From positions 30,807 to 94,806 of the forward strand of contig NZ_FUIC01000027.1 of the NCBI RefSeq assembly GCF_900163695.1: a stretch of DNA of 64,000 nucleotides, given 5' to 3'. Positions within the stretch are counted from its first letter, which is position 1. Every line of letters starts with the position of its first letter. The position numbers and the translations under genes were made by a program. Under the pieces are notes generated by a model. That model searched no databases. It had not been told where the DNA came from and saw nothing but the letters and a program-made list of their open reading frames with translations. This DNA is from Gulosibacter sp. 10 (lineage in GTDB: Bacteria > Actinomycetota > Actinomycetes > Actinomycetales > Microbacteriaceae). This document shows positions 12,444 through 45,962 of the stretch, piece by piece.

Positions 12444-13142
12444 GTGGTGACGAACATCGGCGGGAGACCGCGTCGCATCGATCGGCGGGATATCCTCCGC
12501 GTCGGTCTCGGCATCGGACTCCGGGACCTCAGCCTCAACGCCGTGGCCTCAGCGCTCGGCGTCTCCGCGGCGGCGCTGTACCGGCACGTGGACGGGCGAT
12601 GGGGGCTCGAGCAGCTGGTGGGGGAGCACCTGCTCGCCGAGCTGCGCCTGCCCGACGACCCGGAGCGGGACGCGGCGGGGCACCTCGTCGACTTCGGGCT
12701 CGCGCTGCGCGAGTCCGTGCTCGGCCATCCCGGCCTCGCCGCGTACCTGCAGACGCTCTTCCCGCGCGGGGACGGCGGCCGGGCGCTGCTCGTCGCCGAG
12801 ATCGAGGCGCTCGGCCGCCGCGGCTACGCGCCGGCGACCGCGCTGGTGCTCGCGAGCGCCGTCGCCTCGCACACCATCGGCTACGCCGCCGGCGAGGAGA
12901 TCCAGCGGGATCGGGGCGCGGAGCTCGAGCAGCACCGCGATCGCGTGCTGTCCGGGATCATGGCCGACGAGCGGCTCCAGCTCGCGCACACCGACCTGCC
13001 GCAGGTCGACTCGGCGGGCTATTTCCGGCTCGTGCTCATGGCGGTGGTCGACGGGCTCGTGGCCGCCGCGCCGAAGGATCGATCCGTGCACGAGGTGGTG
13101 GCCGCGCTCGAGGCGCGCCACTGCCGAGAGGCGGTGCGCTGA
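12444..13142 (+). CDS. TetR-like transcriptional regulator
   Basis: GTG start preceded by [28 protein letters not shown]. Its stop overlaps the irtA-like start (ATGA at 13140-13144). Confidence 0.7.
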
Positions 13143-15829
13143 TGGCGAAGCGGGGCTTCCAGGGCGCGATCATGCGCGGCTTCGGCGCCCGCGACCACAT
13201 CGCGGTCGTCACGGGCAGGGAGTACCTCGCCGAGCACTTCGTGCGCGTGCGCATGACCTCCGAGACGCTCTTCGACGAGGCGGTGACGGGGCCGGCGGCC
13301 TGGGCCCGCTTCTGGTTCCCCGACCCCGACGGGGGCGAGGCCGAGTACCAGCGCGGCTACACCTTCAGCGAGGCCGATGCGGCCACCGGCGAGTTCGCCG
13401 TCGACTTCGTCCTGCACGAGCCCGCCGGCCCGGCCTCGATCTGGGCCAGGACGGCCGAGCCGGGCTCGGCCGTGCCGGTGCAGGCCGTCGCGACCACCCG
13501 ATTCGACCTCCCGGCCGAGACGCCCGAGGGGTTCCTGCTCATCGGCGACTCCGCGTCGATCCCGGCCATCGGCGGGATCCTCGAGGCGCTGCCCCGAGAC
13601 GTCCCGGTCGAGGTGTACCTCGAGCAGCACGAGGACGCGGACGCGACGATCCCGCTGCCGCGGCATCCCCTCGCGCGCATCCACCGACTGCCGCGGGAGG
13701 GCGCCGACTCGCTGGCCCGCGGCATCGAGGCGCGCGACTGGTCCAACTGGTACGCCTGGATCACGCCGGAGTCCGGCTCCCTCAAGCACCTGCGCACCCG
13801 GCTCCGCGACGAGTTCGGGTTCCCGAAGTCGGAGATGCACCCCCAGGCGTACTGGATCGAGGGCCGCTCCATGGGGAAGATGCGCAACGAGGACGCCGCG
13901 GATGCGGTGCCCGCGGCCGCATCCGTGTCCGAAACCGCGACCGTTCCCGGCGTCGCCGCGGGGGCCGACGGCGCGCGATCGCCCGAGCCGCAGCCCGAGT
14001 CCCGGCCACAGCCCGAGCCCGCCGCCTCCGCGCCCAGGGGCGAGTGGCGGGCGAACGCGGCCGGGCGGCTGCTCGCGCCCCTGCGGATCACCTTCTGGCT
14101 CGCGGGGATCCTGCAGGGCATCGTCACGCTCGTCGAGCTCGCGCCCTTCGTCCTGCTCGTCGAGCTGTCGCGGCTGCTGCTCGAGGGCGCCGAGCCCGCG
14201 CGGCTCTGGACGGTGGGCCTGTGGGCGGCGGGGCTCATGGCCGCGGGCGCGCTGTGCTCGGCGGGGCTGCTCCTCTGGCTCCACGCGGTGGATGCGCGGC
14301 TCTCGAGGGACCTCCGCCGCCGACTGCTCGGCAAGACGGCCCGCCTGCCGCTCGGCTGGTTCGACGCGCGAGGATCGGGCGGGGTCAAGCAGCTCATGCA
14401 GGACGACACGCTGTCGCTGCACTACCTCGTGACCCACGCGGTGCCGGACGCCGTCGCCGCGGCGCTCGCGCCGATCGCCGTGCTGGTGTACCTCTTCGTC
14501 GTCGACTGGCGGCTCGCGCTCGTCCTGCTCGTGCCGGTGCTCGTCTACGTCGTGACGATGTACGGCATGATCGTGCGCAGCGGGACGCGGACGCGCCAGG
14601 CGGTGGCCTGGTCCGAGCGCATGAACGAGGAGGCCGGCGCGTACCTCGAGGGGCAACCCGTGGTCCGCGTCTTCGGCGGGGCCGCGGCCTCCGGCTTCCG
14701 AGCGGCGCTGGGGGAGTACATCCGCTTCCTCGACGCCTGGCAGCGGCCCTTCACCGGGCAGAAGACGGTCATGGACCTCGCGACCCGCCCGGCGACCTTC
14801 CTGCTGCTCATCCTCGGGGTCGGCGCCCTGCTCGTGACCGGCGGCTCGATGGATCCCATCGCGCTCCTGCCCTTCCTGTTCCTCGGGACCACCTTCGGCG
14901 CGCGGCTCCTCGGCATCGGCTACGGACTCTCGGGGCTTCGGGAGGGGCTGCTCGCGGCCAAGCGCATCCAGGTGGTTCTCGACGAGCCCGAGCTCGAGAC
15001 CCGTCCGGCGGAGGCGCCCGCGGCGAAGGGGCCCGTGGGCGAAACGGCCCCGGGGCTCGTGGAGTTCGAGGGCGTCGGATTCGCCTACCGCCCCGGGGCG
15101 CCGGTGCTGCAGGGCATCGATCTGCGGCTCGAGCCGGGCACCGTCACCGCGCTCGTCGGCCCGTCCGGCGCGGGCAAGTCCACCCTGGCCGCCCTCCTCG
15201 CGCGCTTCCACGACCCCGTCGACGGCGCCATCCGCGTCGGCGGCGCGGACCTCCGCGAGCTCGGCGCCGACGAGCTGTACTCCCGCGTGGGCTTCGTCTT
15301 CCAGCAGACGCAGCTCGTCCGCGGCACGGTGCGGGAGAACATCGCCCTCGCCGTCCCCGACGCCGACGACGACCGGGTGGTCGCGGCGGCGCGGGCCGCG
15401 AACATCCACGAGCGGATCCTGCGCCTCCCGGACGGGTACGAGACGGAGCTCGGCCCCGGAGCCGCGCTCTCCGGCGGCGAGCAGCAGCGGCTCACCATCG
15501 CCCGGGCGATCCTCGCCGACTCGCCGGTGCTCGTCCTCGACGAGGCGACCGCGTTCGCCGACCCCGAGTCCGAGCACCTCGTGCAGCAGGCGCTGAGCCG
15601 CCTCACCGCCGGTCGCACGGTGCTCGTCATCGCCCACCGGCTGCACACGATCACCCGCGTCGACCGGATCGCCGTGCTCGAGGAGGGGCGCCTCGTCGAA
15701 TCCGGGACGCACGACGAGCTGCTCCGGCGCGACGGCACCTACCGCAGACTCTGGCACGCCGGCGGCTACGAGGAGCGCCCCGCCCGGGCATCCGAGCCGG
15801 CGGCCACCGGGAAGGAGACCCGCGCATGA
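13142..15829 (+). CDS. irtA: IrtA-like siderophore importer subunit: N-terminal siderophore-interacting (FAD-binding, ViuB/SIP-like) domain fused to ABC exporter-fold transmembrane domain and ATPase
   Basis: 895 aa. N-terminal about 250 aa has the SIP/FAD-binding RxYT motif (QRGYTFSE). A six-helix TMD follows. C-terminal NBD has Walker [10 protein letters not shown], the LSGGEQQR signature and Walker B VLVLDEAT. Confidence 0.85.
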
Positions 15830-17559
15830 TCCGGACGTTCCTCGACCTGCTGCCGAGCGGCAGCCGCGCGCGCCTCGCAGCGCACCTGGCACTGACCCTG
15901 CTGAGCGTCGCGCTGCGCGCCGCCGGCATCGTGCTCCTGGTGCCCGCCCTCGCCGCGCTGTTCGGCCCCGAGCCCGCAGGAGCCTGGCCGTGGATCGGCG
16001 CACTGGCGGCCGCGACCGTCGCGGGCTGGATCGTCGACTGGGTCGTGGCCCGCATCGGCTTCGACCTCGGCTTCGGACTCCTCGAGCACGGGCAGGCCGC
16101 CGTCGCGGAGCGCATCGCCCGAATCCGGCTCGGCTGGTTCGACGTCGAGCATGCGGCGGCCGCGCGACGCGCCGTGGCGGCCACCGGCCCGGAGCTCGTC
16201 GGGCTCATCGGCTATCTCGTGACCCCGCTGCTCAGCGCCGTGCTGCTGCCGATCGCGATCGGGGTCGCGCTCCTCCCGATCGCGTGGCCGCTGGGCGTCG
16301 CCGCGCTCATCGGCGCACCGCTCCTGCTCGGCGCCTTCTGGGCCTCCTCCGCCCTCGGCCGGCGGGCGGACGCCGAGGCGGCGGCGACGAACAGCGATCT
16401 CACCGAGCGGATCGTCGAATTCGCCAGGGTGCAGCAGGCGCTGCGGGCCTCGCGTCGGGTCGAGCCGGCGCGCAGCAGCGCGGGCGAGGCGCTCGCCCGC
16501 CAGCACGGGGCCGGCATGCGCCTGCTCCTGATGCAGGTGCCGGGGCAGATCGTCTTCAGCCTCGCGACGCAGCTCGCGCTGATCGTCCTGGCCGGCACGA
16601 CCGTGCTGCTCACCACCGGCGGAGCCGTGAGCATCCCCGAGGCGATCGCGCTCATCGTCGTGATCGTCCGCTACCTCGACCCGTTCCTCTCGCTGGGCGG
16701 GCTCGCCCCCGGCCTCGAGTCGGCCTCGCGCACGCTGCGCGACATCGGGCGCGTGCTCGACGCCGAGCCGGTGCGCGAGGGCGCCGAGCGCGTGCCGGCC
16801 GCCGACGCCCCCGCGATCGAGCTCCGGGGGGTCGGGTTCCACTACGGCGACCCGGCGCAGCCCGTGCTGGAAGGGCTCGACCTCCGGATCGAGGCGGGCA
16901 CGACCACCGCGATCGTCGGCCCCTCCGGCTCGGGCAAGAGCACCGTCCTGGCGCTCATCGCGGGCCTGCACGAGCCGACCTCGGGGCGGGTGCTGGTGGA
17001 GGGCGTCGACCTCGCCGCCCTCGATGCGGGCAGCCGCGCCGCGCTCATCACCATGGTCTTCCAGCAGCCCTTCCTCTTCGACGGCACGATCCGCGAGAAC
17101 GTGCTCGTCGGCGCCCCGGGCGCCCGGGAGGCCGCGCTCGAGCACGCCGCACGGCTCGCCCGCGTGGATGCGGTCGTCGCGGGCCTGCCCCGCGGCTGGG
17201 AGACGCGTACGGGCGAGGGTGGCGCATCGCTCTCCGGCGGGGAGCGGCAGCGCGTCTCCATCGCGCGGGCGCTGCTCAAGCCGGCGCCCGTCCTGCTCGT
17301 GGACGAGGCGACCAGCGCGCTCGACACCGAGAACGAGGCGGCCGTGGTGGCCGCGCTGGAGGAGGACCCCAGGCGCCGCACCCGGGTGATCGTCGCCCAC
17401 CGGCTCGAGAGCGTCCGGCGCGCGGACCGGGTCCTGTTCCTCGAGGAGGGCCGGATCGTGGAGGACGGGCCGGTGGAGGCGCTCCTGCGGGCGAGCGGTC
17501 GGTTCGCCGAGTTCTGGCGGCGGCAGGACGCGGCCTCGGGGTGGCGGATCCGCGACTAG
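15826..17559 (+). CDS. irtB: IrtB-like ABC transporter permease/ATP-binding subunit
   Basis: 577 aa. ATG overlaps the irtA-like stop (ATGA) and is preceded by GAAGGAG. TMD plus NBD ([28 protein letters not shown]). Confidence 0.85.
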
Positions 17560-20375: not shown

Positions 20376-20710
20376 CTAGAGGGCCGCGTCGCCCCGTTCG
20401 CCGGTGCGAATGCGAACGGCGTCGTCGACCGTGGTGGACCAGACCTTGCCGTCGCCCACCTCGCCAGTGCGGGCGGAACCCGTGATGACCCGGATGACGT
20501 CCTCAGCGGCCTCGTCGGCGACGAGGATCTCGAGCCGGACCTTCACCACGAAGTCGATCGTGAACTCCGCGCCGCGGTACACCTCCCGGTGGCCGAGCTG
20601 GCGGCCGTAGCCGGAGCACTCGCTCACGGTCATCCCGGTGATGCCGTGCTGTGCGAGGGCGACTTGGACATCGGTGAGGACGTCGGGCTGCAGGATTGCG
20701 GTGATGAGTT

Positions 20711-20714
<4 letters not shown>
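20376..20714 (-). CDS. glnK: P-II nitrogen regulatory protein
   Basis: 112 aa from a GTG with an AGGAAGAGG RBS. Classic PII sequence (KLITAI..P, T-loop GYGRQLGHREVYRGAEF, with Tyr51 present). GTGA overlap with the amtB stop. Confidence 0.9.
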
Positions 20715-22048
<1,334 letters not shown>

Positions 22049-22204
22049 ATTCACCCTCCCGAAGAGTCGCGGTCGGGGAACTGCCCTCAGTCCCCCTGTG
22101 TGGGACAAAGGTAACTGTTGGTGGAACTATGTGTCAACTGAAAAGGGCGCATGTCTACTTGTGGATGCGCTCGACGGTGGGGTATCGCCTAGGATGGACG
22201 CATC

Positions 22205-22630
22205 ATGACGGACAGCGTGCGAATCGATGCGTGGCTCTGGTCGGTGCGCGTCTACAAGACCAGGTCGGCCGCCACCGCCGCCGTGCGCGGCGGCAAGGTG
22301 CGGGTGAACGACAACCACGTCAAGGCCTCGTACGGTGTGCGCATCGGGGACCGGGTGCGCGTGCGCATCGACGGCTTCGACCGCATCCTCGTGGTCAAGG
22401 CGCTGCTGCAGAAGCGGGTCGGCGCGCCCGTCGCCGCGACGGCCTACGAGGACCGCTCCGCGCCGCTGCCGCCGCGCGAGCTGCGCCGGCCGCCGGCCAT
22501 CCGCGAGCGCGGGGCCGGCCGTCCCACCAAGCGCGAGCGCCGCGAGCTCGACCGCCTGCTCGCGCAGGACGAGCGCGACCTGGATCGGATCCGGGCGGAG
22601 CTGCTCGGCGAAGCGCAGCCCGAGGACTGA
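22205..22630 (+). CDS. S4-domain RNA-binding protein (Hsp15/HslR-like)
   Basis: 141 aa. N-terminal S4 motif (VRIDAWLWSVRVYKTRSAA...GGKVRVND) and a basic C-terminal tail. Confidence 0.8.
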   Translation: MTDSVRIDAWLWSVRVYKTRSAATAAVRGGKVRVNDNHVKASYGVRIGDRVRVRIDGFDRILVVKALLQKRVGAPVAATAYEDRSAPLPPRELRRPPAIRERGAGRPTKRERRELDRLLAQDERDLDRIRAELLGEAQPED

Positions 22631-22657: not shown

Positions 22658-23950
22658 TCAGCGCCCCGCCGCGGCGTCGATCGCCCGGACGAGCCCATCG
22701 GGGAGCAGCGCCTGCCACCAGTGCGCGTCGTGCCCGCCGACGGCGGTGTCGAAGGAGAGCAGGCCGCCCTGCACGCGCAGCAGCTCGGCGGCCTGGCGGA
22801 TATCCCGGAACAGGTCCCATTCGAGCACTCCGCCCTGGAGGACGAGCGGGGAGGGCCGTGCCGCGGCGGCGCGCTCGCCGAACCAGGTGCCCCGGCCCTC
22901 GCCGAACCGGCCGCTGTTGGGCCACCAGAACGACGGGGACTGCGCGACCCCGGCCAGCACGAGGTCGGGGTCGCGGGTCGCGGCGAGCGCGGTGAAGAGC
23001 CCGCCGAGGCTCTGCCCCGCGAGGATGAGGCCGGCGCTCCGCGGGGCTCCCGCCGCGCGCACCGCTTCGAGCAGCGCGCGCATCGCCTCGGCGTCGGCCG
23101 TGTAGTCGACCGTCCGCTGCCGGGGGCCGCCGGACTCCAGCAGGAGCACGTGGACCGGCTCGCAGCCGCCCGCATCGATGCGTCGCTCGAGCTCCGCGAC
23201 GATCGGGTACTGCTCGTGCCACACCTCGCCGTCGAGGAGCAGCACGGCGGGCGACTCCGGGGTCGCGCGGGGATGCGACCAGCGGTGCAGCGCGAGCGGC
23301 TCGCCGTTCGAGGGGCTCGGGATGCGCACGGGCCCGTCGAGCTCGGCGCGCTCGGCGAGGCGCAGCTCCGGGGCGCCCGGCCCGCGGCCGACGGCCAGGC
23401 GCACGGGGCCGAGCTTGTTCGGCGCGTACTCGCGCGCGTGCGGATCCTCGACGAGCCGGGCGCGCAGCCCGGCCGCGAGCGCCATGTCGACCGGCGCGTG
23501 GAGCCGCGGCGCGGGCAGCGGCGAATCGGGGAGGACGAACTGATACGTGCCGAGCCAGGCGGACGGCAGCTCGAGCGTCAGCGAGTGCAGCCGGGTCTCC
23601 GCGATCGGCGCGAGGGCGGTATCGGCCGGGTCGAGGATGTCGCTGATCTTGTTGGCGAACAGCAGGACTCCGTGGGGCGCCTCGCCGTGCCAGAGGAAGG
23701 TGACGAGGACCTCGCCGTCGTCCCCCGCGGCCGGCTCGACGAGCGGGGTCCCCTGGGCGCGCAGGGCCGTCGCGAGCTCCGCCGCCCGCCGCTCGCGCTC
23801 CTCCGGGCCGGCGATCACGGCGAGCTCGGCCCGCACCGCCTCGACGCGCGGCGATTCGGCCACGGGCAGCGGCCACGGGCGGATCGAGTGCGGCGGCATG
23901 GTGGGATCGCGGCGGGCGCCGTGCTGCGGTGCGGTTCGTGCTGCGGACAT
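22658..23950 (-). CDS. enterochelin-esterase-like (Fes/IroE family) alpha/beta hydrolase
   Basis: 430 aa with a GAAGGAG RBS. C-terminal esterase domain has the nucleophile elbow GQSLGG. An N-terminal domain precedes it, as in Fes. Located at the distal end of the siderophore ABC operon. Confidence 0.7.
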   Translation of the reverse strand: MSAARTAPQHGARRDPTMPPHSIRPWPLPVAESPRVEAVRAELAVIAGPEERERRAAELATALRAQGTPLVEPAAGDDGEVLVTFLWHGEAPHGVLLFANKISDILDPADTALAPIAETRLHSLTLELPSAWLGTYQFVLPDSPLPAPRLHAPVDMALAAGLRARLVEDPHAREYAPNKLGPVRLAVGRGPGAPELRLAERAELDGPVRIPSPSNGEPLALHRWSHPRATPESPAVLLLDGEVWHEQYPIVAELERRIDAGGCEPVHVLLLESGGPRQRTVDYTADAEAMRALLEAVRAAGAPRSAGLILAGQSLGGLFTALAATRDPDLVLAGVAQSPSFWWPNSGRFGEGRGTWFGERAAAARPSPLVLQGGVLEWDLFRDIRQAAELLRVQGGLLSFDTAVGGHDAHWWQALLPDGLVRAIDAAAGR

Positions 23951-24009
23951 CGGGGATGCTCCTTCTCTGGCGATGCGGTTCGGGGATGGTCGGGTTCGGG
24001 CGGCCGGGG

Positions 24010-25131
24010 CTACCGGTCGTCGGCGCGGAGCCGGCTCGCGAGCGTGCCGGGCCCGTATCCGGCGGGGAATCGTCCGGCGGCGACGAGGGCCGGGACGACC
24101 TCCTCGGCGAAGAGCTCGAGGGAGCGCCAGGAGCCCATGGGCAGGGCGATGACGCCGTCGGCCGCGCCCGCGTCGAGCCGCTCGAGGATGCGATCCGCGG
24201 CGGCGCGCGGGGTGTCGGCGACGGTCCAGTGCCGGACGTGAGCGGGCGCGCGGATCCCGCTGCGCTCCGCCGACTCCCGGGCCTCCTGCCGCGTCTCGGC
24301 CAGCCAGAGCGAGAGCCCGGGCAGGATGCGGGGCGAGGGGCGCCCGGCCGCGGCGGCGAGCCGGGCGGCCTCGCGACGGAGCCGGATGCCGTCCTCGGGC
24401 TCCGCGGTCATGGCGAAGATCGCATCGGCGCGGCGCGCGGCGAATGCCAGCGAGGCCGCGGAGCCCCCGGCGTGGAGGAGCGGCAGCGCCGACTCCTCGA
24501 ACGCCGGCGCGGTGAGCGGGCCGGTCGCGCGGAACGGCCCGTGGGGCTCCGCCGTGCGCACCGCGCCGGGGTCGGCGAACTCGCCCGACTCCCGGTTGAG
24601 CCGGAGCACGCCGGCGGGGAAGGTGGCCCGCAGCTCCTCGACGGCCGCGACGAACTCCTCGGCCCGGCGGTACGGGTCATCGACCGGCGGGACGTCGGGG
24701 AAGCGGCCGGGATCGGCGAGCGAGGTGACGACGTTCCAACCGGTCCGGCCCTCGGAGAGCCGGTCGAGCGACTGCAGCTGCCGGGCGGCGGAGTACGCCT
24801 GCGCGAACGTCGAGGAGAGCGTGGGGACGAGGCCGATCCGGGAGGTCGTCGCGGCGAGCGCGCTCATCACGACGATCGGGTCGAGCGAGGCGAACCCCGG
24901 CTCGCGGGACATCGGGGCGGGATCGAGCACGATCGCGTCCGGGCGGAACACGAAGTCGAGCCCGGCGGCCTCGGCGAGTCTCGCCGCCCGCAGCGGGAAC
25001 TCGAGCGAGAACATCGTCTCGACGCCGCTGTCCCGGCGCCGCCAGGCGTCGCCCTTCAGCCAGGTGGGCGAGAGCGAGAGGCCGATGACGGCGCGCTCGC
25101 GAGCCGCCGGGACGCCGTCCGCGGCCGTCAC
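24010..25131 (-). CDS. LLM-class (luciferase-like) flavin-dependent monooxygenase/oxidoreductase
   Basis: About 373 aa. LLM signature LDRLSEGRTGWNVVTS. GTG start overlaps the ABC ATPase stop (GTGA). The N-terminal extension in the 600-aa track ORF was rejected. Confidence 0.75.
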   Translation of the reverse strand: MTAADGVPAARERAVIGLSLSPTWLKGDAWRRRDSGVETMFSLEFPLRAARLAEAAGLDFVFRPDAIVLDPAPMSREPGFASLDPIVVMSALAATTSRIGLVPTLSSTFAQAYSAARQLQSLDRLSEGRTGWNVVTSLADPGRFPDVPPVDDPYRRAEEFVAAVEELRATFPAGVLRLNRESGEFADPGAVRTAEPHGPFRATGPLTAPAFEESALPLLHAGGSAASLAFAARRADAIFAMTAEPEDGIRLRREAARLAAAAGRPSPRILPGLSLWLAETRQEARESAERSGIRAPAHVRHWTVADTPRAAADRILERLDAGAADGVIALPMGSWRSLELFAEEVVPALVAAGRFPAGYGPGTLASRLRADDR

Positions 25132-25952
25132 GAGGAGGGGGCCGCGGTGCTGCTGGCGATCGGCACGACCATCGGCGTCTCGAACACGGGATCGCTGAGC
25201 ACCCGGGCGGTGAGGCCGAAGACGTCCTCGAGCAGGGGCTCGGTGAGCACCTCCTCGGGCCGGCCGCTCGCGGCGAGCGCGCCGTCCTTCATCACGACGA
25301 GATGATCGGCGTACCGGGCGGCCTGGTTCAGGTCGTGCAGCACGAGCACCATGGTGCGCGACTCCTCGCGGTTGAGGCGCCGGCAGAGCTCGAGCACGTC
25401 GAGCTGATGGGCGATGTCGAGGAACGTGGTCGGCTCGTCGAGGAGCATCGTCGGGGTGTCCTGCGCCAGCAGCATCGCGATCCAGACCCGCTGCCGCTGC
25501 CCGCCGGAGAGCTCCTCGACGGCGCGGTCCGCGAGGTCGATCACGCCAGTCGAGCGCATCGCGAGGTCCACGGCGCGCTCGTCGTCCTGCGACCACTGCT
25601 GCAGCATCCGCTGATGCGGGAACCTGCCGCGGGCGACGAGATCCGCGACGGTGATGCCGAACGGCGCCGTCGAGGACTGGGGGAGCAGTCCGAGGCGCTT
25701 CGCGAGCGTTTTCGGGGCCAGCGAGCGGACGTCCTCCCCGCCGAGCAGGACGCGCCCGGCATCGGGGACGAGCAGGCGCGAGAGCGCGCGCAGGAGGGTC
25801 GACTTGCCGCACGCGTTCGGGCCGATGATGATCGTGACCTCGCCCTCGGGGATCGAGACGGTGAGATCGCGCGCGATCTCGCGGGCGTCGTAGGAGAGCG
25901 TGACGCGCTCGGCGTGGAGCGAGGAGGGGGATGGCATTGGGGATCCTTGCAT
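25128..25952 (-). CDS. iron-siderophore ABC transporter ATP-binding protein (FepC/FecE-like)
   Basis: Walker A GPNACGKST, signature LSGGQRQR, Walker B LLDEPT. An alternative start at 25937 is preceded by AAGGA. Confidence 0.9.
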   Translation of the reverse strand: MQGSPMPSPSSLHAERVTLSYDAREIARDLTVSIPEGEVTIIIGPNACGKSTLLRALSRLLVPDAGRVLLGGEDVRSLAPKTLAKRLGLLPQSSTAPFGITVADLVARGRFPHQRMLQQWSQDDERAVDLAMRSTGVIDLADRAVEELSGGQRQRVWIAMLLAQDTPTMLLDEPTTFLDIAHQLDVLELCRRLNREESRTMVLVLHDLNQAARYADHLVVMKDGALAASGRPEEVLTEPLLEDVFGLTARVLSDPVFETPMVVPIASSTAAPSS

Positions 25953-25953
25953 G

Positions 25954-27000
25954 TCAGACCTGCTTGGAGCGGGTCAGGAGCCAGATGAGGTAGAAGCCGC
26001 CGATGATGCCGGTGATGCGGCCGATCGGCAGCGTCGCGGTGACCGGCAGCAGCTGGCCGATGAGGTCGGCGACGAGGAGCATCGCGGCGCCCATCGCCCC
26101 GGCGCTGAACACCGGCATGGACCGCGAGCGCGAGAGGCGGATGACGAGCTGCGGCGCCGCGAGCGCGATGAACGCGATCGGGCCGGCCGCGCCCGTGGCG
26201 AGCCCGGCGAGCACCACGGCGGCGAGCATGAGCAGCAGCCTGGTCCGCTCGACGCGCACGCCGAGCTGCTGCGAGAGGTCGTCGCCCATCTCCATGAGGG
26301 AGGCGCGGCGCCCGAGCGCGCCGATGAACGGCACGATGAGGACCACGCCGATCATGACGGGCAGGGCGTGGCCCCAGTTGCGGGCGTCGAGCGAGCCGGA
26401 GAGCCAGAGGTTCGCGGCGATGGCGTTGTCGAGCTCGCCCAGCACGAGCATGAGCCCGTTGAGCGCGCCGAGCACCGCGCCGACCCCGATGCCCACGAGC
26501 ACGAGCCGGTAGCCGCCCGTCACCCCGCCCTTGCGGGAGAGCAGGTACACGGCGGCGGCGGTGAGGATGCCGCCCGCGACCGCGCTCAGGGCGATCTCGA
26601 GCGGGGTGCCCTGGAAGATCACGATCTGCGTGATCGCGCCCGTGGCGGCGCCGGTCGTGAAGCCGATGATGTCCGGCGAGCCGAGGGCGTTGCGCGAGAC
26701 CGACTGGAAGACGGCGCCGGAGACCCCCAGCGCGGCGCCGGCGAAGATCGCGGTGAGCACGCGGGGGAGGCGCAGGTTCTGCACCACGTGCGTATTGCGC
26801 CCGTCCTCGCCGCCGAAGAGCGCCGAGAGCACGTCGCCCATGGAGATGTCGAGGCTGCCGACGGTCATGGCGAAGACGCCGAGGACGAGCAGCAGCGCGA
26901 GCAGCACCGCGGTGACGGCGACGAGCCGCGGCGAGACGAGCACGGAGAAGCGCCGGGTGCGCCAGACGGCGCGGCGGGGCGGGGCTTCGGTTCGGGTCAC
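25954..27000 (-). CDS. iron-siderophore ABC transporter permease (FecCD family)
   Basis: 348 aa. FecCD-type hydrophobic profile. 1-nt gap to the ATPase gene. Confidence 0.85.
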   Translation of the reverse strand: MTRTEAPPRRAVWRTRRFSVLVSPRLVAVTAVLLALLLVLGVFAMTVGSLDISMGDVLSALFGGEDGRNTHVVQNLRLPRVLTAIFAGAALGVSGAVFQSVSRNALGSPDIIGFTTGAATGAITQIVIFQGTPLEIALSAVAGGILTAAAVYLLSRKGGVTGGYRLVLVGIGVGAVLGALNGLMLVLGELDNAIAANLWLSGSLDARNWGHALPVMIGVVLIVPFIGALGRRASLMEMGDDLSQQLGVRVERTRLLLMLAAVVLAGLATGAAGPIAFIALAAPQLVIRLSRSRSMPVFSAGAMGAAMLLVADLIGQLLPVTATLPIGRITGIIGGFYLIWLLTRSKQV

Positions 27001-28085
27001 AGTTGCACCATCCTGCGGCGGCGGACGAGGTAGACGAAGAAGGGGCCTCCCAGCAGCGCGACCATGATGCCGACGCTCACCTCGCCCGCGACGGGCAGGG
27101 CGCGCCCCAGCGTGTCCGCGAACACGAGCAGGAAGGCGGAGATGAGCGCGGAGTAGGGCAGCACCCAGCGGTGGTCGACCCCGACGATGAGCCGCGCGAG
27201 GTGGGGCGCGGCGAGCCCGAGGAAGGCGATGGGGCCGGCGGCTGCGGTGGCGGCGCCCGCGAGGACGATCACGACGACCCCCGAGAGGGCCCAGACGCGC
27301 GAGGGGTTGCCGCCCAGGGATTTGCTGAGGTCCTCGCCGAGCATCGCGGCATCGAGCGCCCGCGAGAGGAAGAAGGCGGCGACCAGGCCGAGCGCGACGA
27401 CCGGGGCCACCGCGGCGAGCACGTCGTAGCCGCGGCCGGCGAGGGAGCCGACCATCCAGTGCCGGTACCGGTCGAAGACGTCCTCGGGGCCGTTCACGAG
27501 CACGAACTGGGTGAGCGCCGTCATCACGACCGAGAACGCGGCCCCGGCCAGCACCAGGCGCACGGGATTCGTGCCGCGGCGCACGCCGCCGAGCAGGTAC
27601 ACCGCGACGCCCGCCGCGGCCGCGCCGACGAAGCCGAGCAGCATGTACCCGAAGACGTTGGCGATGCCGAAGAACGAGATGCCCGTCGCGATCGCGAGGG
27701 CGGCGCCGCCGTTGACGCCGAGGATCCCGGGCTCGGCCAGCGGATTGCGGGTGAGCGACTGCATGATCACGCCCGCGACCCCGAGCGCGAGCCCGACGAC
27801 CACCGAGAGCAGGGCGCGCGGGATCCGCTGATGGAACACCAGCAGGTGCGCGGAATCCTCCGGGTCGAACGCGAAGATCGCCTGCCAGGTGTCGGCGAGC
27901 GCGATCTCGCGGACGCCGATGCAGGCGCTGAAGAACATCGTCACCGCGATCGCGATGACGAGGGGGACGACTCCGAGCCGGCGCCGACGGCGCATCCGCG
28001 CGGTGACGGGGGAGGACGACGGGGCGGGGCGGCGCCGGGCGGACCCGGCGCCGCCGCGCCGACTAGTTGCCGAAGTGGTTGACAA
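26997..28085 (-). CDS. iron-siderophore ABC transporter permease (FecCD family)
   Basis: 362 aa. FecCD family. 4-nt overlap with the downstream permease. Confidence 0.85.
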   Translation of the reverse strand: MSTTSATSRRGGAGSARRRPAPSSSPVTARMRRRRRLGVVPLVIAIAVTMFFSACIGVREIALADTWQAIFAFDPEDSAHLLVFHQRIPRALLSVVVGLALGVAGVIMQSLTRNPLAEPGILGVNGGAALAIATGISFFGIANVFGYMLLGFVGAAAAGVAVYLLGGVRRGTNPVRLVLAGAAFSVVMTALTQFVLVNGPEDVFDRYRHWMVGSLAGRGYDVLAAVAPVVALGLVAAFFLSRALDAAMLGEDLSKSLGGNPSRVWALSGVVVIVLAGAATAAAGPIAFLGLAAPHLARLIVGVDHRWVLPYSALISAFLLVFADTLGRALPVAGEVSVGIMVALLGGPFFVYLVRRRRMVQL

Positions 28086-29064
28086 CGCTGTCGACGATCT
28101 CCGTGGCGCTGTACTTGTCGATGCGGAAGGAGTTCAGCCCGAGGCCGTACACCTGCCCGTCCTGCACGGAGGGCAGATTGGCGAGGGTCGGGTCCTCCAC
28201 GAACGCCTTCGCGCCCTCGTCGTCCTGGCTCAGGATGAATGTGGTGTCGGCGGTGAGCTCGGTGAGGTTCTCGTAGGAGGCGAAGACGAAGTCCTCTCGC
28301 TCCTGCGGCTGGGTGTGCCAGTCGGGGTTCGGCTCCTCGATCTCGAAGCCGAGCTGGGCGAGCAGCTGCCCGTGCGGGCCCTCGGCGCGGCCGATGGGGT
28401 TGCCCTCGCTGGGGCCGTTGTAGGAGACGATGTTCGCCTGGCCCTCGGGCACGGTGATGCTCGAGGCGGCGTCCTCGACGTAGGCGTCGAACTCGTCGAT
28501 GCTCGCCTGCGCCTGCTCCTCGAGGCCGGTGGCCTCGCCGAGCTCGACCGCGAGGTCCTGCCAGGTCTGCGCGCCGTAGTCGACGACGATCGTCGGCGCG
28601 ATCTGCTGCAGCTCGGCGACCTGGTCGGCGACGGAGTCGGCGCCGGTCGCGGCGACCACGATGAGGTCCGCGTCGTAGGCGTAGGCCGCCTCGATGTCGA
28701 CCTCGCCCGCCGACCACAGGTTCTCCACGCCCTGCTCCTCGGCGACGTCCGCCCACTGGGCGAAGAAGTCGCCGGCGGCGTCGGTGCCCGAGGCGACCAG
28801 CGGCGCGTCGATCGCGAGCAGCGTGCCCGAGACCGAGACGGAGGTCGAGACGATGTTCTGCGGCTGCTCGGGGATCTCGGTGGTGGTGCCGTCCGCGTTC
28901 TCGAAGGTGCGGGGCCAGGTGCCGCCGTCGGTCGAGGAGGCATCGCCCTCGCCGGTGGATTCGGGCGCGGCGTCGGAGGCGCAGCCGGCGAGCGCGAGGG
29001 CGCCGACGGAGAGCGCGGCGAGCCCGGCCAGCAGTCGGGAGCGCGTGGAGCGCGAACGGTTCAT
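28063..29064 (-). CDS. iron-siderophore ABC transporter substrate-binding lipoprotein
   Basis: Start at Met index 14 (MNRSRSTRSRLLAGLAALSVGALALAGC) with an AAAGGA RBS, giving a signal peptide plus a LAGC lipobox. Periplasmic-binding-protein type 2 sequence. The 3' end overlaps the permease start. Confidence 0.8.
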   Translation of the reverse strand: MNRSRSTRSRLLAGLAALSVGALALAGCASDAAPESTGEGDASSTDGGTWPRTFENADGTTTEIPEQPQNIVSTSVSVSGTLLAIDAPLVASGTDAAGDFFAQWADVAEEQGVENLWSAGEVDIEAAYAYDADLIVVAATGADSVADQVAELQQIAPTIVVDYGAQTWQDLAVELGEATGLEEQAQASIDEFDAYVEDAASSITVPEGQANIVSYNGPSEGNPIGRAEGPHGQLLAQLGFEIEEPNPDWHTQPQEREDFVFASYENLTELTADTTFILSQDDEGAKAFVEDPTLANLPSVQDGQVYGLGLNSFRIDKYSATEIVDSVVNHFGN

Positions 29065-29168
29065 GATCGTCCTTTCGGGGGTCGACGATGCGTCGAAGGC
29101 CGGCACCGCGGCGGCGAGGGATTCGCGTGGCCGTGGAAGGGCCGGATTCGCGCATCACTGAGCATTGG

Positions 29169-29187
29169 CTAGGCAAGGCTAGCCTAA
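29169..29187. promoter_or_regulatory. candidate IdeR/DtxR iron box (CTAGGCAAGGCTAGCCTAA) upstream of the siderophore ABC operon
   Basis: 15/19 match to the IdeR consensus TTAGGTTAGGCTAACCTAA, counted by hand. Lies about 105-125 bp upstream of the SBP start codon on the operon side of the terminator. Confidence 0.4.
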
Positions 29188-29230
29188 CCGGAAGGTGTTC
29201 GGAATGCCGGGACGCGAACCGGGGGAGAAC

Positions 29231-29290
29231 GGGCTGAAAAACAGCGAGGGGCCGGCGCCGCGATCAAGCATCGCGGCGCCGGCCCCTCGC
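29231..29290 (-). terminator. intrinsic terminator: perfect 21-bp stem (GCGAGGGGCCGGCGCCGCGAT / loop CAAGC) followed by a U-tract on the minus strand
   Basis: Perfect inverted repeat at 29244-29264 and 29270-29290, seen directly. Minus-strand downstream sequence is TGTTTTTCAG. Lies 6 nt after the AKR stop codon. Confidence 0.65.
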
Positions 29291-29295
29291 CGTCG

Positions 29296-30782
<1,487 letters not shown>

Positions 30783-40152: not shown

Positions 40153-42039
40153 CTAGTAGCGCTTGAAGGGCTTCCGCCCGCCGCCGTCCCAGTCGTCGCG
40201 CCGGCCCCGTCCGCCGCGGTCATCGCGGTCGTAGCCGCCGCGTCCGCCGCGGTCGTAGCCGCCGCGGCCCCGGCGGTCGTCGCGGTCGTAGCCGCCGCGG
40301 CCTCCCCGGTAGCCGCCGCGGTCGTCGTTCCGCCCGCCGCGCCCCCGGCCGCCCTTGTCCGGCTTGATGTCGATGTCGCGCCCGCCGACCTGCGTGTTCC
40401 GCAGCCGGTCGAGCACCGACCGGTCGAGGTTCTCGGGCAGCTCGACGATCGAGAAGCTCGGGAAGATCTTGATCGAGCCGATCTGCTCGCGCGAGAGGCC
40501 GCCCTCGTTCGCCAGGGCGCCGACGATGCGGCCCGGCATCGCGCCGTCGCGCTTGCCGACCTCGATGCGGTAGCCCGTCAGGCCCTCGGAGCTCCGCTCG
40601 CGGCGGGGCCCGCGCTCGCGGTCCTCGCCGCGGCGCTCGCCCCGGCCCGAGGTCCGCAGCTCGTCCTTCTGGGGGTCGAGCAGCAGGCGGTCCTCGCCCT
40701 GGCCGACCACCGCGAGGGCGGCGGCGACGTCGAGCTCGGGCACGTCGTGGTGGCGCACGTAGTGGTCGATGATGTCGCGGAAGGCGGAGACGCGCTCGGT
40801 CTGCTCGAGCGCCTTGGTGATCTCGTCGTCGAACCTGGTGAGCCGCGTCTCGTTGATGTCTGCGACCGAGGGCAGCTGCACCTCGGTCATGGGCTGCCGG
40901 GTGGTGCGCTCGATGTGGTTGAGCAGGCGCCGCTCGCGCGGGGTGACGAAGCTGATGGCGATGCCCGAACGGCCCGCGCGGCCCGTGCGGCCGATGCGGT
41001 GCACGTAGGACTCCGGGTCGGTGGGGATGTCGAAGTTCACGACGTGCGTGATGCGCTCCACGTCGAGGCCGCGCGCCGCGACGTCGGTGGCGACGAGCAC
41101 GTCGAGCCGGCCCGACTTGAGATTGTCGACGAGCCGCTCGCGCTGGGCCTGCGGCACGTCGCCGTTGAGCGATCCCGCAGAGAACCCGCGGGCGCGGAGC
41201 TTCTCGGCGAGCTGCTCCGTCTCGCTCTTGGTGCGCACGAAGACGATCATGCCCTCGAACTCCTCGACCTCGAAGATGCGCGTGAGGGCGTCGACCTTCT
41301 GCTGGTAGGAGACGATCAGGTAGCGCTGCTCGATGTTCGAGGAGGTGGTGGTCTTCGACTTGACCGTGATCTCGGCGGCGTCGTTGAGGTACTTCTGCGA
41401 GATGCGGCGGATCTGCGGCGGCATGGTGGCGGAGAACAGGGCGACCTGCTTCTCGGCGGGCGTGTCCGCGAGGATGGTCTCGACGTCCTCCGCGAAGCCC
41501 ATCTTCAGCATCTCGTCGGCCTCGTCGAGCACGAGGAAGCGGAGCTGGGTGAGGTCGAGGGTGCCCCGCTTGAGGTGGTCCATGATGCGGCCGGGCGTGC
41601 CGACCACGACATCCACGCCGCGGCGCAGGGCCGAGAGCTGGCCGCCGTAGGCCTGGCCGCCGTAGATGGGCAGCAGGCGGACGTCGGGGAGCTTTGACGC
41701 GAAGCTCTCGAACGCCTCCGCCACCTGCAGCGCGAGCTCTCGGGTCGGGGAGAGCACGAGCGCCTGCGGCGCGCGCTGGCCGGGCTCGATGCGAGAGAGC
41801 ACGGGCAGCGCGAACGCGGCGGTCTTGCCGGTGCCGGTCTGCGCGAGGCCGACGACATCCCGGCCCTCGAGGAGGGTCGGGATGGTCGCCGCCTGGATGG
41901 GGGACGGGCGCTCGTAGCCGATCGCGCTGATCGCTTCGAGCACGGGTGCGCTCAAGCCGAGTTCTGCGAATTTGGGGGTGGCATCGGGCGCCTCGGAGGC
42001 GGAACCGTTCGTTTCGGGGCCATTGGAATGAGGCGTCAT
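40153..42039 (-). CDS. DEAD-box ATP-dependent RNA helicase (DeaD/CsdA-like) with DbpA-type RNA-binding domain and RGG/RGGY-repeat C-terminal tail
   Basis: Start at Met index 112 (MTPHSNG...). The upstream part of the track ORF is junk. Q-motif, Walker A AQTGTGKT, DEAD (VLDEADEM), SAT and HRIGRTGRAG motifs. Low-complexity Arg/Gly/Tyr tail. Confidence 0.85.
   Translation of the reverse strand: MTPHSNGPETNGSASEAPDATPKFAELGLSAPVLEAISAIGYERPSPIQAATIPTLLEGRDVVGLAQTGTGKTAAFALPVLSRIEPGQRAPQALVLSPTRELALQVAEAFESFASKLPDVRLLPIYGGQAYGGQLSALRRGVDVVVGTPGRIMDHLKRGTLDLTQLRFLVLDEADEMLKMGFAEDVETILADTPAEKQVALFSATMPPQIRRISQKYLNDAAEITVKSKTTTSSNIEQRYLIVSYQQKVDALTRIFEVEEFEGMIVFVRTKSETEQLAEKLRARGFSAGSLNGDVPQAQRERLVDNLKSGRLDVLVATDVAARGLDVERITHVVNFDIPTDPESYVHRIGRTGRAGRSGIAISFVTPRERRLLNHIERTTRQPMTEVQLPSVADINETRLTRFDDEITKALEQTERVSAFRDIIDHYVRHHDVPELDVAAALAVVGQGEDRLLLDPQKDELRTSGRGERRGEDRERGPRRERSSEGLTGYRIEVGKRDGAMPGRIVGALANEGGLSREQIGSIKIFPSFSIVELPENLDRSVLDRLRNTQVGGRDIDIKPDKGGRGRGGRNDDRGGYRGGRGGYDRDDRRGRGGYDRGGRGGYDRDDRGGRGRRDDWDGGGRKPFKRY
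40156..40330. repeat. tandem imperfect GC-rich repeats (about 17-24 nt unit, CGCGGTCGTAGCCGCCG-like) encoding the RGGY tail
   Basis: Repeated GTCGTAGCCGCCGCG units seen directly. In frame, encoding the GGYDR/GGRGG repeats. Confidence 0.5.
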
Positions 42040-42062: not shown

Positions 42063-43214
42063 CTACCCTTCGACCGCCGTTCGGAAGATCGAGGCCACCG
42101 GGGAGTCGTCCGGCAGATCCGCCCGGCGCACCGCGACGACGCGACCGCCGGTGCGCAGCACCCGCGCCGCGATCTCGTCGACGAGCCGGTAGGTGGTCGG
42201 CCCGGGCTCCGGGACCGGGAACACGGCGCCGAACTCGTCGATGACCCCCTCGTCGTTCGCCTCGATGTCGAACAGCAGCTCCTCCACCTGGCCGGCGCTG
42301 GCCGCCTTCGCCACCGCCTCGAGGTTCGAGCCGGCCCGGCGGTGCGCCTTCTGGGTGCCGAAGCGCTCGCACCACTCCGCGAGGCCGCGCCGGTACTCGC
42401 GGTCGAGGACGGCGCGGCCGCGCTGCTCGAGATCCGCGAGCGAGAGCGAGGCGGGGTTCGCCGAGATGCCCTCCTCGAGCAGCGCGCCGTAGCGGTTGAC
42501 CTGCCGGTACGCCGGATCGAGGTCGGCGGCCGCGGCGAGCACGAGCGGCACCGAGTCCTCGCCGATCTCGGCGAGCACCGCGTCCTGCACGATGGTGCAG
42601 TAGCGCCGCTGCTCGATCTTCGGTCCGAGCGTGCCGTCGGCCCGATGCCGGTCGAACCGTCCGGTGGTGACGGAGTTGCTCAGCACGTCCGAGGCGTCCT
42701 CGGGGAGCGAGCGCAGCTCGATGCTCCGGCTCGTCGCCGCCGAGTCGAGGTAGAGCAGCCGGACGTCGCCCTCGGTGACGGCGAGCACGTAGCCGGTGTG
42801 GGCGAAGCTCGAGGCGCGCACGAGCGGGCCGACGTCGAACCGGTCGCCGACGGCGGTGAGCGGCGCGAGGCGGTTCATCAGGCGGAAGGCGCGGATGCCC
42901 TCGGGCGAGGCGAAGACGGCGACGCTGCGAGCCTGGGTGCCCCAGAAGTCGCGATCGCCCTCGAGCTCCCGGATCCGCTCGGCGATCGCCTCGCGCTCGG
43001 GCTTGGGGATGTCGATCTCGGCGAGCTCCGCGAGCGCGGCGTTCGCGGCTGATCGGAGCGAGAGGCGCGCGGCCTCGGTGTCGTGGGCGATCGGGGGACG
43101 CTGGCCGTCGTCCTTCCCGTGCTCCGCGGCGCTCACGTAGATCGACACGCTCGCCACGTCGCGGTGCCTGGTCAGCTGGGCAAAGTCTTCTGCGGAAGGA
43201 ATATCGATGCTCAT
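42063..43214 (-). CDS. conserved hypothetical protein, possibly eRF1/Pelota-like (baeRF-type) fold
   Basis: 383 aa, normal composition. C-terminal segment AGQVEELLFDIEANDEGVIDE resembles the eRF1 domain-3 motif. Assignment is by weak pattern recall only. Confidence 0.45.
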   Translation of the reverse strand: MSIDIPSAEDFAQLTRHRDVASVSIYVSAAEHGKDDGQRPPIAHDTEAARLSLRSAANAALAELAEIDIPKPEREAIAERIRELEGDRDFWGTQARSVAVFASPEGIRAFRLMNRLAPLTAVGDRFDVGPLVRASSFAHTGYVLAVTEGDVRLLYLDSAATSRSIELRSLPEDASDVLSNSVTTGRFDRHRADGTLGPKIEQRRYCTIVQDAVLAEIGEDSVPLVLAAAADLDPAYRQVNRYGALLEEGISANPASLSLADLEQRGRAVLDREYRRGLAEWCERFGTQKAHRRAGSNLEAVAKAASAGQVEELLFDIEANDEGVIDEFGAVFPVPEPGPTTYRLVDEIAARVLRTGGRVVAVRRADLPDDSPVASIFRTAVEG

Positions 43215-45805: not shown

Positions 45806-45962
45806 GCCACCGTCTGCGTCGCACGAGAGCCGGTCCGGCGCGCGCCGCATCCGACCGCGGCCGGATGCGGCGGGGGAGGCGGCTCGAGGATAATCGTCTC
45901 AGTTCATCCTCGGCCCAGGTCACATCGCGACGGAAGGCGATGCCGACCCGCCGGCACAACGC

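Follow-up and report, generated by a model that had tools for sequence, protein, structure and literature searches.

LLM-family flavoproteins beside ViuP/FepB-type siderophore importers, seen from an operon of Gulosibacter sp. 10

We analysed a 64,000-nucleotide stretch of the Gulosibacter sp. 10 genome (assembly GCF_900163695.1, contig NZ_FUIC01000027.1, positions 30,807 to 94,806; hereafter the window, whose own numbering is used throughout), in which six minus-strand genes encode a siderophore importer of the ATP-binding cassette (ABC) type, a luciferase-like monooxygenase (LLM) family flavoprotein and a Fes-like esterase. The LLM belongs to a clade whose genes recur next to siderophore transport genes in three phyla, and it probably has a dedicated role in siderophore use. 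Our preferred explanation, to which as a whole we give a probability of about 0.5, is that the operon serves the use of catecholates of the vibriobactin/enterobactin kind and that the LLM is a flavin mononucleotide (FMN) oxygenase attacking the siderophore ligand. The operon-level statement is made with high confidence, and the oxygenase mechanism, taken by itself, is put forward tentatively.

The operon and its predicted substrate

The genes are listed in the order of transcription.

28063-29064, minus strand: substrate-binding lipoprotein (SBP), Peripla_BP_2, ViuP/FepB type; lipobox LAGC; Shine-Dalgarno sequence GAAAGGA
26997-27995, minus strand: FecCD permease 1, FepD-like; PF01032 1e-91; NF007760 277 bits, under the equivalog cut-off
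25954-27000, minus strand: FecCD permease 2, FepG-like; PF01032 1e-74; NF007759 304 bits, under the equivalog cut-off
25128-25952, minus strand: ABC ATPase, FepC/FecE-like; PF00005; NF007606 334 bits and NF008409 322 bits, both under the equivalog cut-offs
24010-25131, minus strand: LLM flavoprotein, 373 aa, WP_087007283.1; PF00296 2e-30; TIGR03860 212.6 bits
22658-23950, minus strand: Fes/IroD-like esterase, 430 aa; Enterochelin_N (PF11806) 4e-10, Esterase (PF00756) 4e-10

The six co-directional genes at 22658-29064 were confirmed as genuine: third-position GC was 0.94-0.99 across all called frames in a frame plot (the window has a G+C content of ~72%), and domain searches recovered a predicted domain for every product. 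Both analyses confirm the gene order given in an initial annotation made from the sequence alone, namely SBP, two FecCD permeases, ATPase, LLM and esterase. That annotation had carried the interval on to 29290, but positions 29065-29290 are noncoding and comprise the terminator of the upstream gene and the promoter/iron-box region. The start of permease 1 was set at the ATG at 27995; choosing the TTG at 28085 instead would create an overlap with the SBP gene.

The SBP passes the FepB/ViuP model NF008200 (381 bits against a cut-off of 205) and aligns with ViuP (PDB 3r5s) without gaps over 284 aa at 52% identity (E 4e-94). Its match to FepB (3tlk) is weaker (E 4e-52), and by these sequence comparisons it is closer to the vibriobactin binder ViuP than to FepB. 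With its two PF01032 permeases and one PF00005 ATPase, which leave the FepD, FepG and FepC NCBIfam equivalog cut-offs unreached, the importer is predicted to be of the ViuPDGC/FepBDGC kind and to transport ferric catecholates. Both Fes domains of the esterase score above gathering level, and its GQSLGG nucleophile motif and GGHD histidine align with those of Fes (3mga); its NF007758 score of 100 bits lies below the Fes equivalog level (cut-off 222), and the homologue of Micromonospora polyrhachis reaches 201 bits. Importer and esterase belong to known kinds (ViuPDGC/FepBDGC and Fes, respectively). No genes for siderophore biosynthesis (nonribosomal peptide synthetase, NRPS, or dhb) were found in the 64-kb window, and the siderophore is therefore probably made by other organisms.

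Clade LLMs beside siderophore importers in other genomes

The best 120 database matches of the LLM form one clade, recognisable by the N-terminal pattern [IV]G[LMI]SL[SA]PTWLxGxxWR (hereafter SPTW). Scanning one genome per species with clade patterns yielded 48 loci, 43 with clade members and 5 with non-clade NtaA-like proteins. FecCD permease genes lie within 7 kb of the LLM in 34 of the 43 clade loci; two further loci have a Peripla_BP_2 gene 16 nt downstream, and one more has a TonB-dependent receptor nearby. Siderophore transport genes thus accompany the LLM in 37/43 clade loci, and none of the 5 non-clade loci has a FecCD, Peripla_BP_2 or TonB-dependent receptor neighbour. The clade loci are from Actinomycetota (Microbacterium, Cumulibacter, Isoptericola, Leucobacter, Demequina, Propionibacteriaceae, Arachnia, Scrofimicrobium), Pseudomonadota (Erwinia, Pantoea, Providencia, Devosia, Bosea, Ruegeria, Jiella, Psychrobacter) and Bacillota (Paenibacillus, Cytobacillus).

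An identical six-gene operon is present in Micromonospora polyrhachis and on a metagenome contig, where ATPase and LLM genes overlap by 4 nt and LLM and esterase genes by 1-4 nt. The LLM gene adjoins a receptor gene in P. putida, P. protegens, P. delhiensis, P. aeruginosa and Delftia. P. putida has the order receptor-LLM-SBP-permease-permease; the other four have fepG-fepD-fepB (leftward), fepC, an IclR-type regulator gene, receptor and LLM. Receptors in the LLM loci match the siderophore subfamily TIGR01783, and the LLM-adjacent SBPs of Rhodobacterales and Paenibacillus are not of the FepB/ViuP type. The initial annotation had regarded the coupling of the LLM to the ATPase as unusual; instead, ATPase-LLM or receptor-LLM adjacency recurs across three phyla, which makes it a conserved module rather than a local extension. 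In a mirror-tree comparison, LLM pairwise identities correlated with ATPase identities (r 0.66) and with SBP identities (r 0.51), a weak support that is confounded by species phylogeny.

Two further gene arrangements were observed at clade loci. In two Paenibacillus loci (L016, 5478-8750, and L031, 5532-8804, both on the minus strand), a NifH-like and two NifD/K-like (Oxidored_nitro) genes, together a nitrogenase-like reductase, adjoin an AraC regulator, a clade LLM, a Peripla_BP_2 SBP and two FecCD permeases, a pairing that is unexplained. In five loci of Propionibacteriaceae and Arachnia (L009, L010, L017, L028, L042), the genes that come after the clade LLM encode a LigT-like 2H phosphoesterase, a TetR regulator and an ABC-2 type exporter (ATPase and membrane protein), and may form an export or recycling arm; in L028, no importer adjoins the LLM.

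Family, fold and signature of the LLM

The only domain in the LLM is PF00296; FAD_binding_9 and SIP are absent, so it is not a member of the SIP/ViuB family. Its exact sequence is on record for Gulosibacter sp. 10, with a generic database annotation only. It scores 212.6 bits against TIGR03860 (NtaA/DmoA), under the curated cut-off of 279.7, and 34-35 bits against SsuD models with cut-offs of 510-518. The clade check proposed in the initial annotation thus comes out as NtaA/DmoA type, with no clustering with alkanesulfonate monooxygenases. The AlphaFold2 model (pLDDT 90) is a TIM barrel, for which the best Foldseek matches are YtnJ/CmoJ (E 4e-29 to YtnJ), NtaA, BdsA/DszA, RcaE and EmoA, at 26-30% identity and TM scores of 0.82-0.85. 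The A1 profile gave E values of 3e-76 to YtnJ and 2e-74 to NtaA (3sdo).

Within the signature, Trp24 is invariant in 120/120 clade sequences and stands where ordinary family members have Gly-x-His; out-group sequences have His, Gly, Pro or Leu at this position. Other residues invariant only in the clade are S35, E38, P64, H301-W302 and P331. The LLM retains the residues conserved in clade and out-group alike (W30, D65, T96, R117, R129, W132-N133-V135-T136, A221-G222-S224), which we take as a putative FMN site, the choice of those that contact FMN being our assumption. It belongs to a short, mostly actinobacterial subgroup of 355-385 aa (28 of the 120 clade sequences are short forms), and a long-form clade member from P. 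putida passes the TIGR03860 cut-off with 357.7 bits. Direct reading of the N-terminus of the LLM revealed no evident signal peptide, and reduced flavin is a cofactor of the cytoplasm; on these grounds we infer that the protein is probably cytoplasmic.

Accessory enzymes of ViuP/FepB-type importers

An independent sample was drawn with the ViuP-like SBP alone and comprised 80 metagenome loci, dereplicated to 38 lineages. The accessory gene next to the transporter was the LLM in 8 lineages, Fes in 5, Fes together with SIP in 3 and SIP in 1; these 17 lineages were informative, and the others were short contigs or biosynthetic/receptor contexts. With these counts, the LLM is a mainstream accessory of ViuP/FepB-type importers, as common as Fes or SIP/ViuB. 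In this sample, LLM and SIP never occurred in one cluster, and the order ATPase-SIP-Fes (L097, L100) parallels ATPase-LLM-Fes, which suggested that the LLM simply replaces SIP. This was weakened when a hidden Markov model built from five SIPs was run on 54 LLM-sampled loci: SIP genes lie within 10 kb in 11/54, and within or next to the LLM cluster in L034, L004, L019 and L037, the SIP of L034 being divergent from SBP...ATPase-LLM-Fes. SIP, Fes and LLM are found together in L034, L004 and L019. The coexistence with both SIP and Fes in some clusters argues that the LLM performs a third step, distinct from hydrolysis and reduction.

We also took a census of the 117 other open reading frames (ORFs) within 3 kb of clade LLMs in 37 loci. 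Beyond transport genes, Fes, SIP and regulators, no neighbour family occurred more than four times. A link to siderophore biosynthesis was considered and set aside, as only 2 of the 117 ORFs have an NRPS Condensation domain and the other neighbours examined were unrelated (autotransporter, DNA methylase, inositol-phosphate synthase).

Gulosibacter sp. 10 also has a second, SIP-based siderophore route in the window, an IrtA/IrtB-like pair at 13142-15829 and 15826-17559 (both on the plus strand), ~5 kb from the operon. In the IrtA-like protein, N-terminal FAD_binding_9 and SIP domains are fused to an exporter-fold ABC protein (ABC_membrane and ABC_tran), as in mycobacterial IrtAB.

Operon boundaries and predicted iron control

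Three noncoding features may bear on the expression of the six genes.

28023-28060, minus strand: GC-rich hairpin directly 3' of the SBP stop codon, without a U-tract, found by folding
29244-29290, minus strand: intrinsic terminator of the upstream aldo-keto reductase gene, with a 20-bp stem (18 GC pairs) ahead of a T-run; delimits the operon upstream
29169-29192, unstranded: predicted IdeR/DtxR-type iron box of two overlapping 19-mers, ~105 nt upstream of the SBP start codon

The gene junctions, read from the sequence, are tight: permeases 1 and 2 overlap by 4 nt (GTGA), permease 2 and the ATPase are separated by 1 nt, and the GTG start of the LLM overlaps the ATPase stop in another GTGA. The 59-nt spacer between LLM and esterase is unstructured, and the esterase has its own Shine-Dalgarno sequence, GAAGGAG. 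The initial annotation had described these junctions correctly, and had given overlapping or tiny junctions throughout; between SBP and permease 1, we find that a 67-nt spacer with a 16-bp GC hairpin is most likely, and homologous operons have a gap of 49-68 nt at the same junction. The 81-nt region around this hairpin has a folding energy of -45.8 kcal/mol (z = -2.9), unmatched by any of 200 shuffled sequences. The hairpin may stabilise the mRNA or act as an attenuator, with SBP in excess as the result.

Upstream, the operon is bounded by the terminator of the aldo-keto reductase gene at 29296-30168, and downstream by a convergent S4-domain gene at 22205-22630. A sequence scan found no promoter-like site and no convincing terminator inside the operon, including between the transporter genes and the LLM, where the initial annotation had pointed to such an element as evidence against its proposal. 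A terminator-like match at 27961-27938 was taken as chance, having a weak stem and lying within the coding region of permease 1. Together with the junctions, this supports the proposal of a single siderophore-import operon that includes the LLM and the Fes-like esterase.

In a scoring scan, the iron box at 29169-29187 reads CTAGGCAAGGCTAGCCTAA against TTAGGTTAGGCTAACCTAA, a match at 15/19 positions, and the 19-mers at 29169-29192 are the only sites of at least 13/19 in the 64 kb. A 15/19 site appeared in 0/60 Markov-simulated windows, and 10/12 scanned homologous loci have a box of 13-17/19 at the equivalent place. A search for the canonical IdeR 19-mer with up to three mismatches gave no match. 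Searching the operon region against Rfam returned nothing at E values up to 1, so no riboswitch such as the cobalamin type was detected. The upstream terminator, the predicted iron box, the convergent downstream gene and the lack of an Rfam match indicate that the operon is self-contained, with its repression by iron very probable.

Comparison with known systems

On a P. aeruginosa contig, the clade LLM follows the receptor gene and is the last gene of the fvbA-fepBCDG cassette, in an order that matches PA4161 to PA4155. The gene numbers PA4155-PA4161 are those published for the cassette (PMC10846271; bioRxiv 10.64898/2026.07.27.740964), and by synteny, rather than from the PAO1 record, the LLM would be PA4155. 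A microarray table for PAO1 has PA4155 co-regulated with PA4156, PA4158 and PA4161 (PMC6546240). The seven-gene FvbA cassette, which the LLM as PA4155 would complete, is reported to be induced by the xenosiderophore cyanochelin B, and FvbA is the published vibriobactin receptor (bioRxiv 10.64898/2026.07.27.740964). The Gulosibacter proteins are homologous to those of the cassette (SBP 48%, permease 56%, ATPase 60%, LLM 48% over 287 aa). In contrast to the short Gulosibacter LLM, that of Pseudomonas is a long form (~435 aa) scoring above the TIGR03860 cut-off, judging from the P. putida homologue, and the P. aeruginosa cassette includes genes for a TonB-dependent receptor and an IclR regulator but none for an esterase, and is split over divergent units. 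In the open-access literature searched, no function was published for a clade LLM or PA4155, nor for any LLM in a siderophore cluster.

The ViuPDGC/ViuB system of V. cholerae resembles that of Gulosibacter in having an SBP (52% identical to ViuP), two FecCD permeases and an ATPase, and likewise needs a cytoplasmic accessory enzyme to free the iron. This accessory is the SIP-fold reductase ViuB in V. cholerae, whereas Gulosibacter has an LLM-fold flavoprotein and a Fes-like esterase. The Gulosibacter system is also Gram-positive in character, with a lipoprotein SBP, no TonB-dependent receptor and an IdeR/DtxR-type box where V. cholerae uses Fur. With the E. coli FepBDGC/Fes system it shares the importer family and the principle of hydrolysing esters in the cytoplasm, and its esterase has the Enterochelin_N and Esterase domains together with the Ser/His motifs. 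It differs in that FepB is the weaker match to its SBP and its esterase falls short of the Fes equivalog; to our knowledge, the E. coli fep/fes cluster has no LLM.

NtaA and EmoA, monooxygenases for nitrilotriacetate and EDTA, have metal-chelator complexes as substrates and are encoded near transport genes for chelates. The LLM has the same fold and family as NtaA/EmoA, CmoJ/YtnJ, DszA/BdsA and RcaE, but is only 26-30% identical to them. Compared with the NtaA/EmoA group, clade LLMs have SPTW in place of Gly-x-His, the window protein lacks a 66-aa insertion, and no NtaB/EmoB-type reductase gene is nearby.

The RUSTI iron-uptake island of cheese-rind Actinobacteria is, like the operon, a FepCDG-like siderophore import module in Actinobacteria. 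It is horizontally mobile, with a host group that includes Gulosibacter relatives, and carries a siderophore reductase, two SBPs and AraC regulators; neither an LLM nor an esterase is mentioned for it there (PMC5526665). An identity of the operon with RUSTI was rejected on this different gene content, and no integrative-element genes lie next to the operon in the window.

Proposed mechanism and its alternatives

We propose that catecholates of the vibriobactin/enterobactin kind, probably from other organisms, are used as follows. The SBP lipoprotein would capture the ferric complex, and the FecCD pair with the ATPase would carry it into the cytoplasm. There, the Fes-like esterase would cut the backbone ester bonds, and the LLM, with FMNH2 from an unlinked housekeeping flavin reductase and with O2, would hydroxylate or cleave the ligand. 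Such an attack would make the ligand bind iron less tightly, or would destroy one that cannot be disarmed by hydrolysis alone; it would complement ester hydrolysis and could also work on amide-linked ligands beyond the reach of Fes. The nearest characterised relatives hydroxylate a carbon adjacent to N or S, by which C-N or C-S bonds are broken, and it is this chemistry in NtaA, EmoA and CmoJ that leads us to favour oxidative attack on the ligand. We infer FMN dependence and the ligand as substrate, and the exact reaction is speculative. The initial annotation had suggested reductive or oxidative iron release, or siderophore modification, all of which are plausible.

Several points weigh against the proposed explanation. 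The match of the esterase to Fes is weak. The terminal His of strand beta-1 is lost across the clade (Trp24 in the LLM); it corresponds to His17 of LadA, a residue needed for catalysis in LadA and related enzymes. The 66-aa insertion between beta7 and alpha7 (YtnJ residues 290-358) is missing from the LLM and the other short forms, and its absence would open the top of the barrel. The LLM has substitutions relative to the clade consensus at positions conserved to at least 97% (P112A, G140D, N143R, G306D), three of which (P112, N143, G306) are also invariant in the out-group, and it could conceivably be a weakened enzyme. These are four departures in 76 highly conserved columns; other short forms have 0-16, and the idea that the LLM stands out as decayed was not upheld. 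Neither Flavin_Reduct nor FMN_red is among the 25 most frequent families of the 117 neighbouring ORFs, and no NAD(P)H:flavin reductase gene was found in the window operon or in eight Pfam-annotated loci; a partner reductase is not obligatory, some members of the NtaA/DmoA family relying on an unlinked one. Oxygenase chemistry is assigned to the clade by homology. Finally, clade members occur in Propionibacteriaceae, Arachnia and Scrofimicrobium, taxa of low-O2 habitats, where an obligate oxygenase would be hard to accommodate.

Loss of the beta-1 His, the missing insertion, the lack of a partner reductase and the low-oxygen taxa keep alive the main rival, which we regard as unlikely. In this reading the LLM would be a ferric-siderophore reductase that depends on flavin and hands electrons from FMNH2 to the bound Fe(III) complex without O2, analogous but not homologous to SIP/ViuB. 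It would also fit the SBP-sampled operons, in which either the LLM or SIP follows the ATPase and the two never share a cluster, and the absence of SIP from the Pseudomonas cassettes. The SIP genes in 11 of the 54 LLM loci, four of them in the cluster, show that LLM and SIP are not simple alternatives, and the close structural relatives of the LLM are all oxygenases or lyases; we know of no ferric reductase with the LLM fold.

Somewhat less likely again is that the LLM acts after iron release, degrading or detoxifying the spent ligand or its fragments, for example N-(2,3-dihydroxybenzoyl) amino acids, and so preventing re-chelation or allowing salvage. The coexistence of the LLM with Fes and SIP would suit such a task, as would the cleavage of C-N and C-S bonds of N- or S-substituted amino acids and aminocarboxylates by members of its family, and the IclR-type regulators, typical of catabolic clusters, in proteobacterial cassettes. 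On the other hand, the LLM is the sole accessory enzyme in 8/17 informative SBP-sampled lineages and in Pseudomonas, where iron must nevertheless be released, and no downstream catabolic genes recur among its neighbours.

It is improbable that the importer takes up a natural aminopolycarboxylate or other chelate as a nutrient, which the LLM would catabolise as NtaA and EmoA do nitrilotriacetate and EDTA. Chelator degradation is what the nearest characterised LLM relatives do, and the IclR regulators in Proteobacteria and the SBPs of other types next to the LLM in Rhodobacterales and Paenibacillus would agree with it. Against it stand the predicted iron box upstream of the operon, the 52% identity of the SBP to ViuP, the Fes-like esterase in the operon, the TIGR01783 (siderophore) receptors, the vibriobactin receptor FvbA in the Pseudomonas cassette and the lack of an Rfam-detected riboswitch. 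That the LLM is a mere passenger in the operon, its role being an unrelated one such as the sulfur scavenging that many NtaA/DmoA and SsuD relatives serve or xenobiotic metabolism, is very unlikely, the sub-cut-off TIGR03860 score notwithstanding, given the adjacency in 37/43 clade loci of three phyla against 0/5 for non-clade relatives, the 4-nt ATPase/LLM overlap kept in distant genomes, the co-regulation of PA4155 with fvbA and fep genes and, with the phylogenetic confounding noted above, the tracking of ATPase and SBP identities.

Other genes in the window

Elsewhere in the window, a plus-strand gene at 7593-9917 encodes a 774-aa fusion of an APH-type kinase domain and a class-III aminotransferase, with TetR regulators on its flanks. 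The minus-strand gene at 42063-43214 encodes a bacterial archaeo-eukaryotic release-factor-like protein of baeRF family 11 and sits between genes for a DeaD-type RNA helicase (40153-41955) and an HrpB-type helicase (43280-45850). An amtB-glnB (P-II) pair (20376-22054, minus strand), just downstream of the convergent neighbour of the operon, and an sbcCD pair (48314-52746, minus strand) provide a housekeeping context.

Implications

The LLM is not unique to the window, and its association with importers is visible in public annotations; what is new is the recognition of the clade, its signature and its frequency. In the textbook account, iron is released from catecholates by esterases and SIP/ferric-siderophore reductase (FSR) enzymes only, and the handling of tight ligands that cannot be hydrolysed is understood only in part. 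A possible but doubtful extension of our proposal is that the SPTW clade is a widespread, so far unrecognised "oxidative Fes" which, by oxygenating or cleaving the ligand, releases iron from amide-linked catecholates that resist hydrolysis, such as vibriobactin. If true, this would be a third cytoplasmic mechanism of iron release beside ester hydrolysis and reduction, and would explain the use of xenosiderophores without ViuB in P. aeruginosa (through PA4155) and in many Actinobacteria. With a clade LLM in a model pathogen for which ready-made mutants exist, the question is directly testable. A ligand-destroying oxygenase might also affect the intracellular processing of siderophore-antibiotic conjugates, and would be relevant to siderophore piracy and its ecology in, for instance, the communities of cheese rinds and the rhizosphere.

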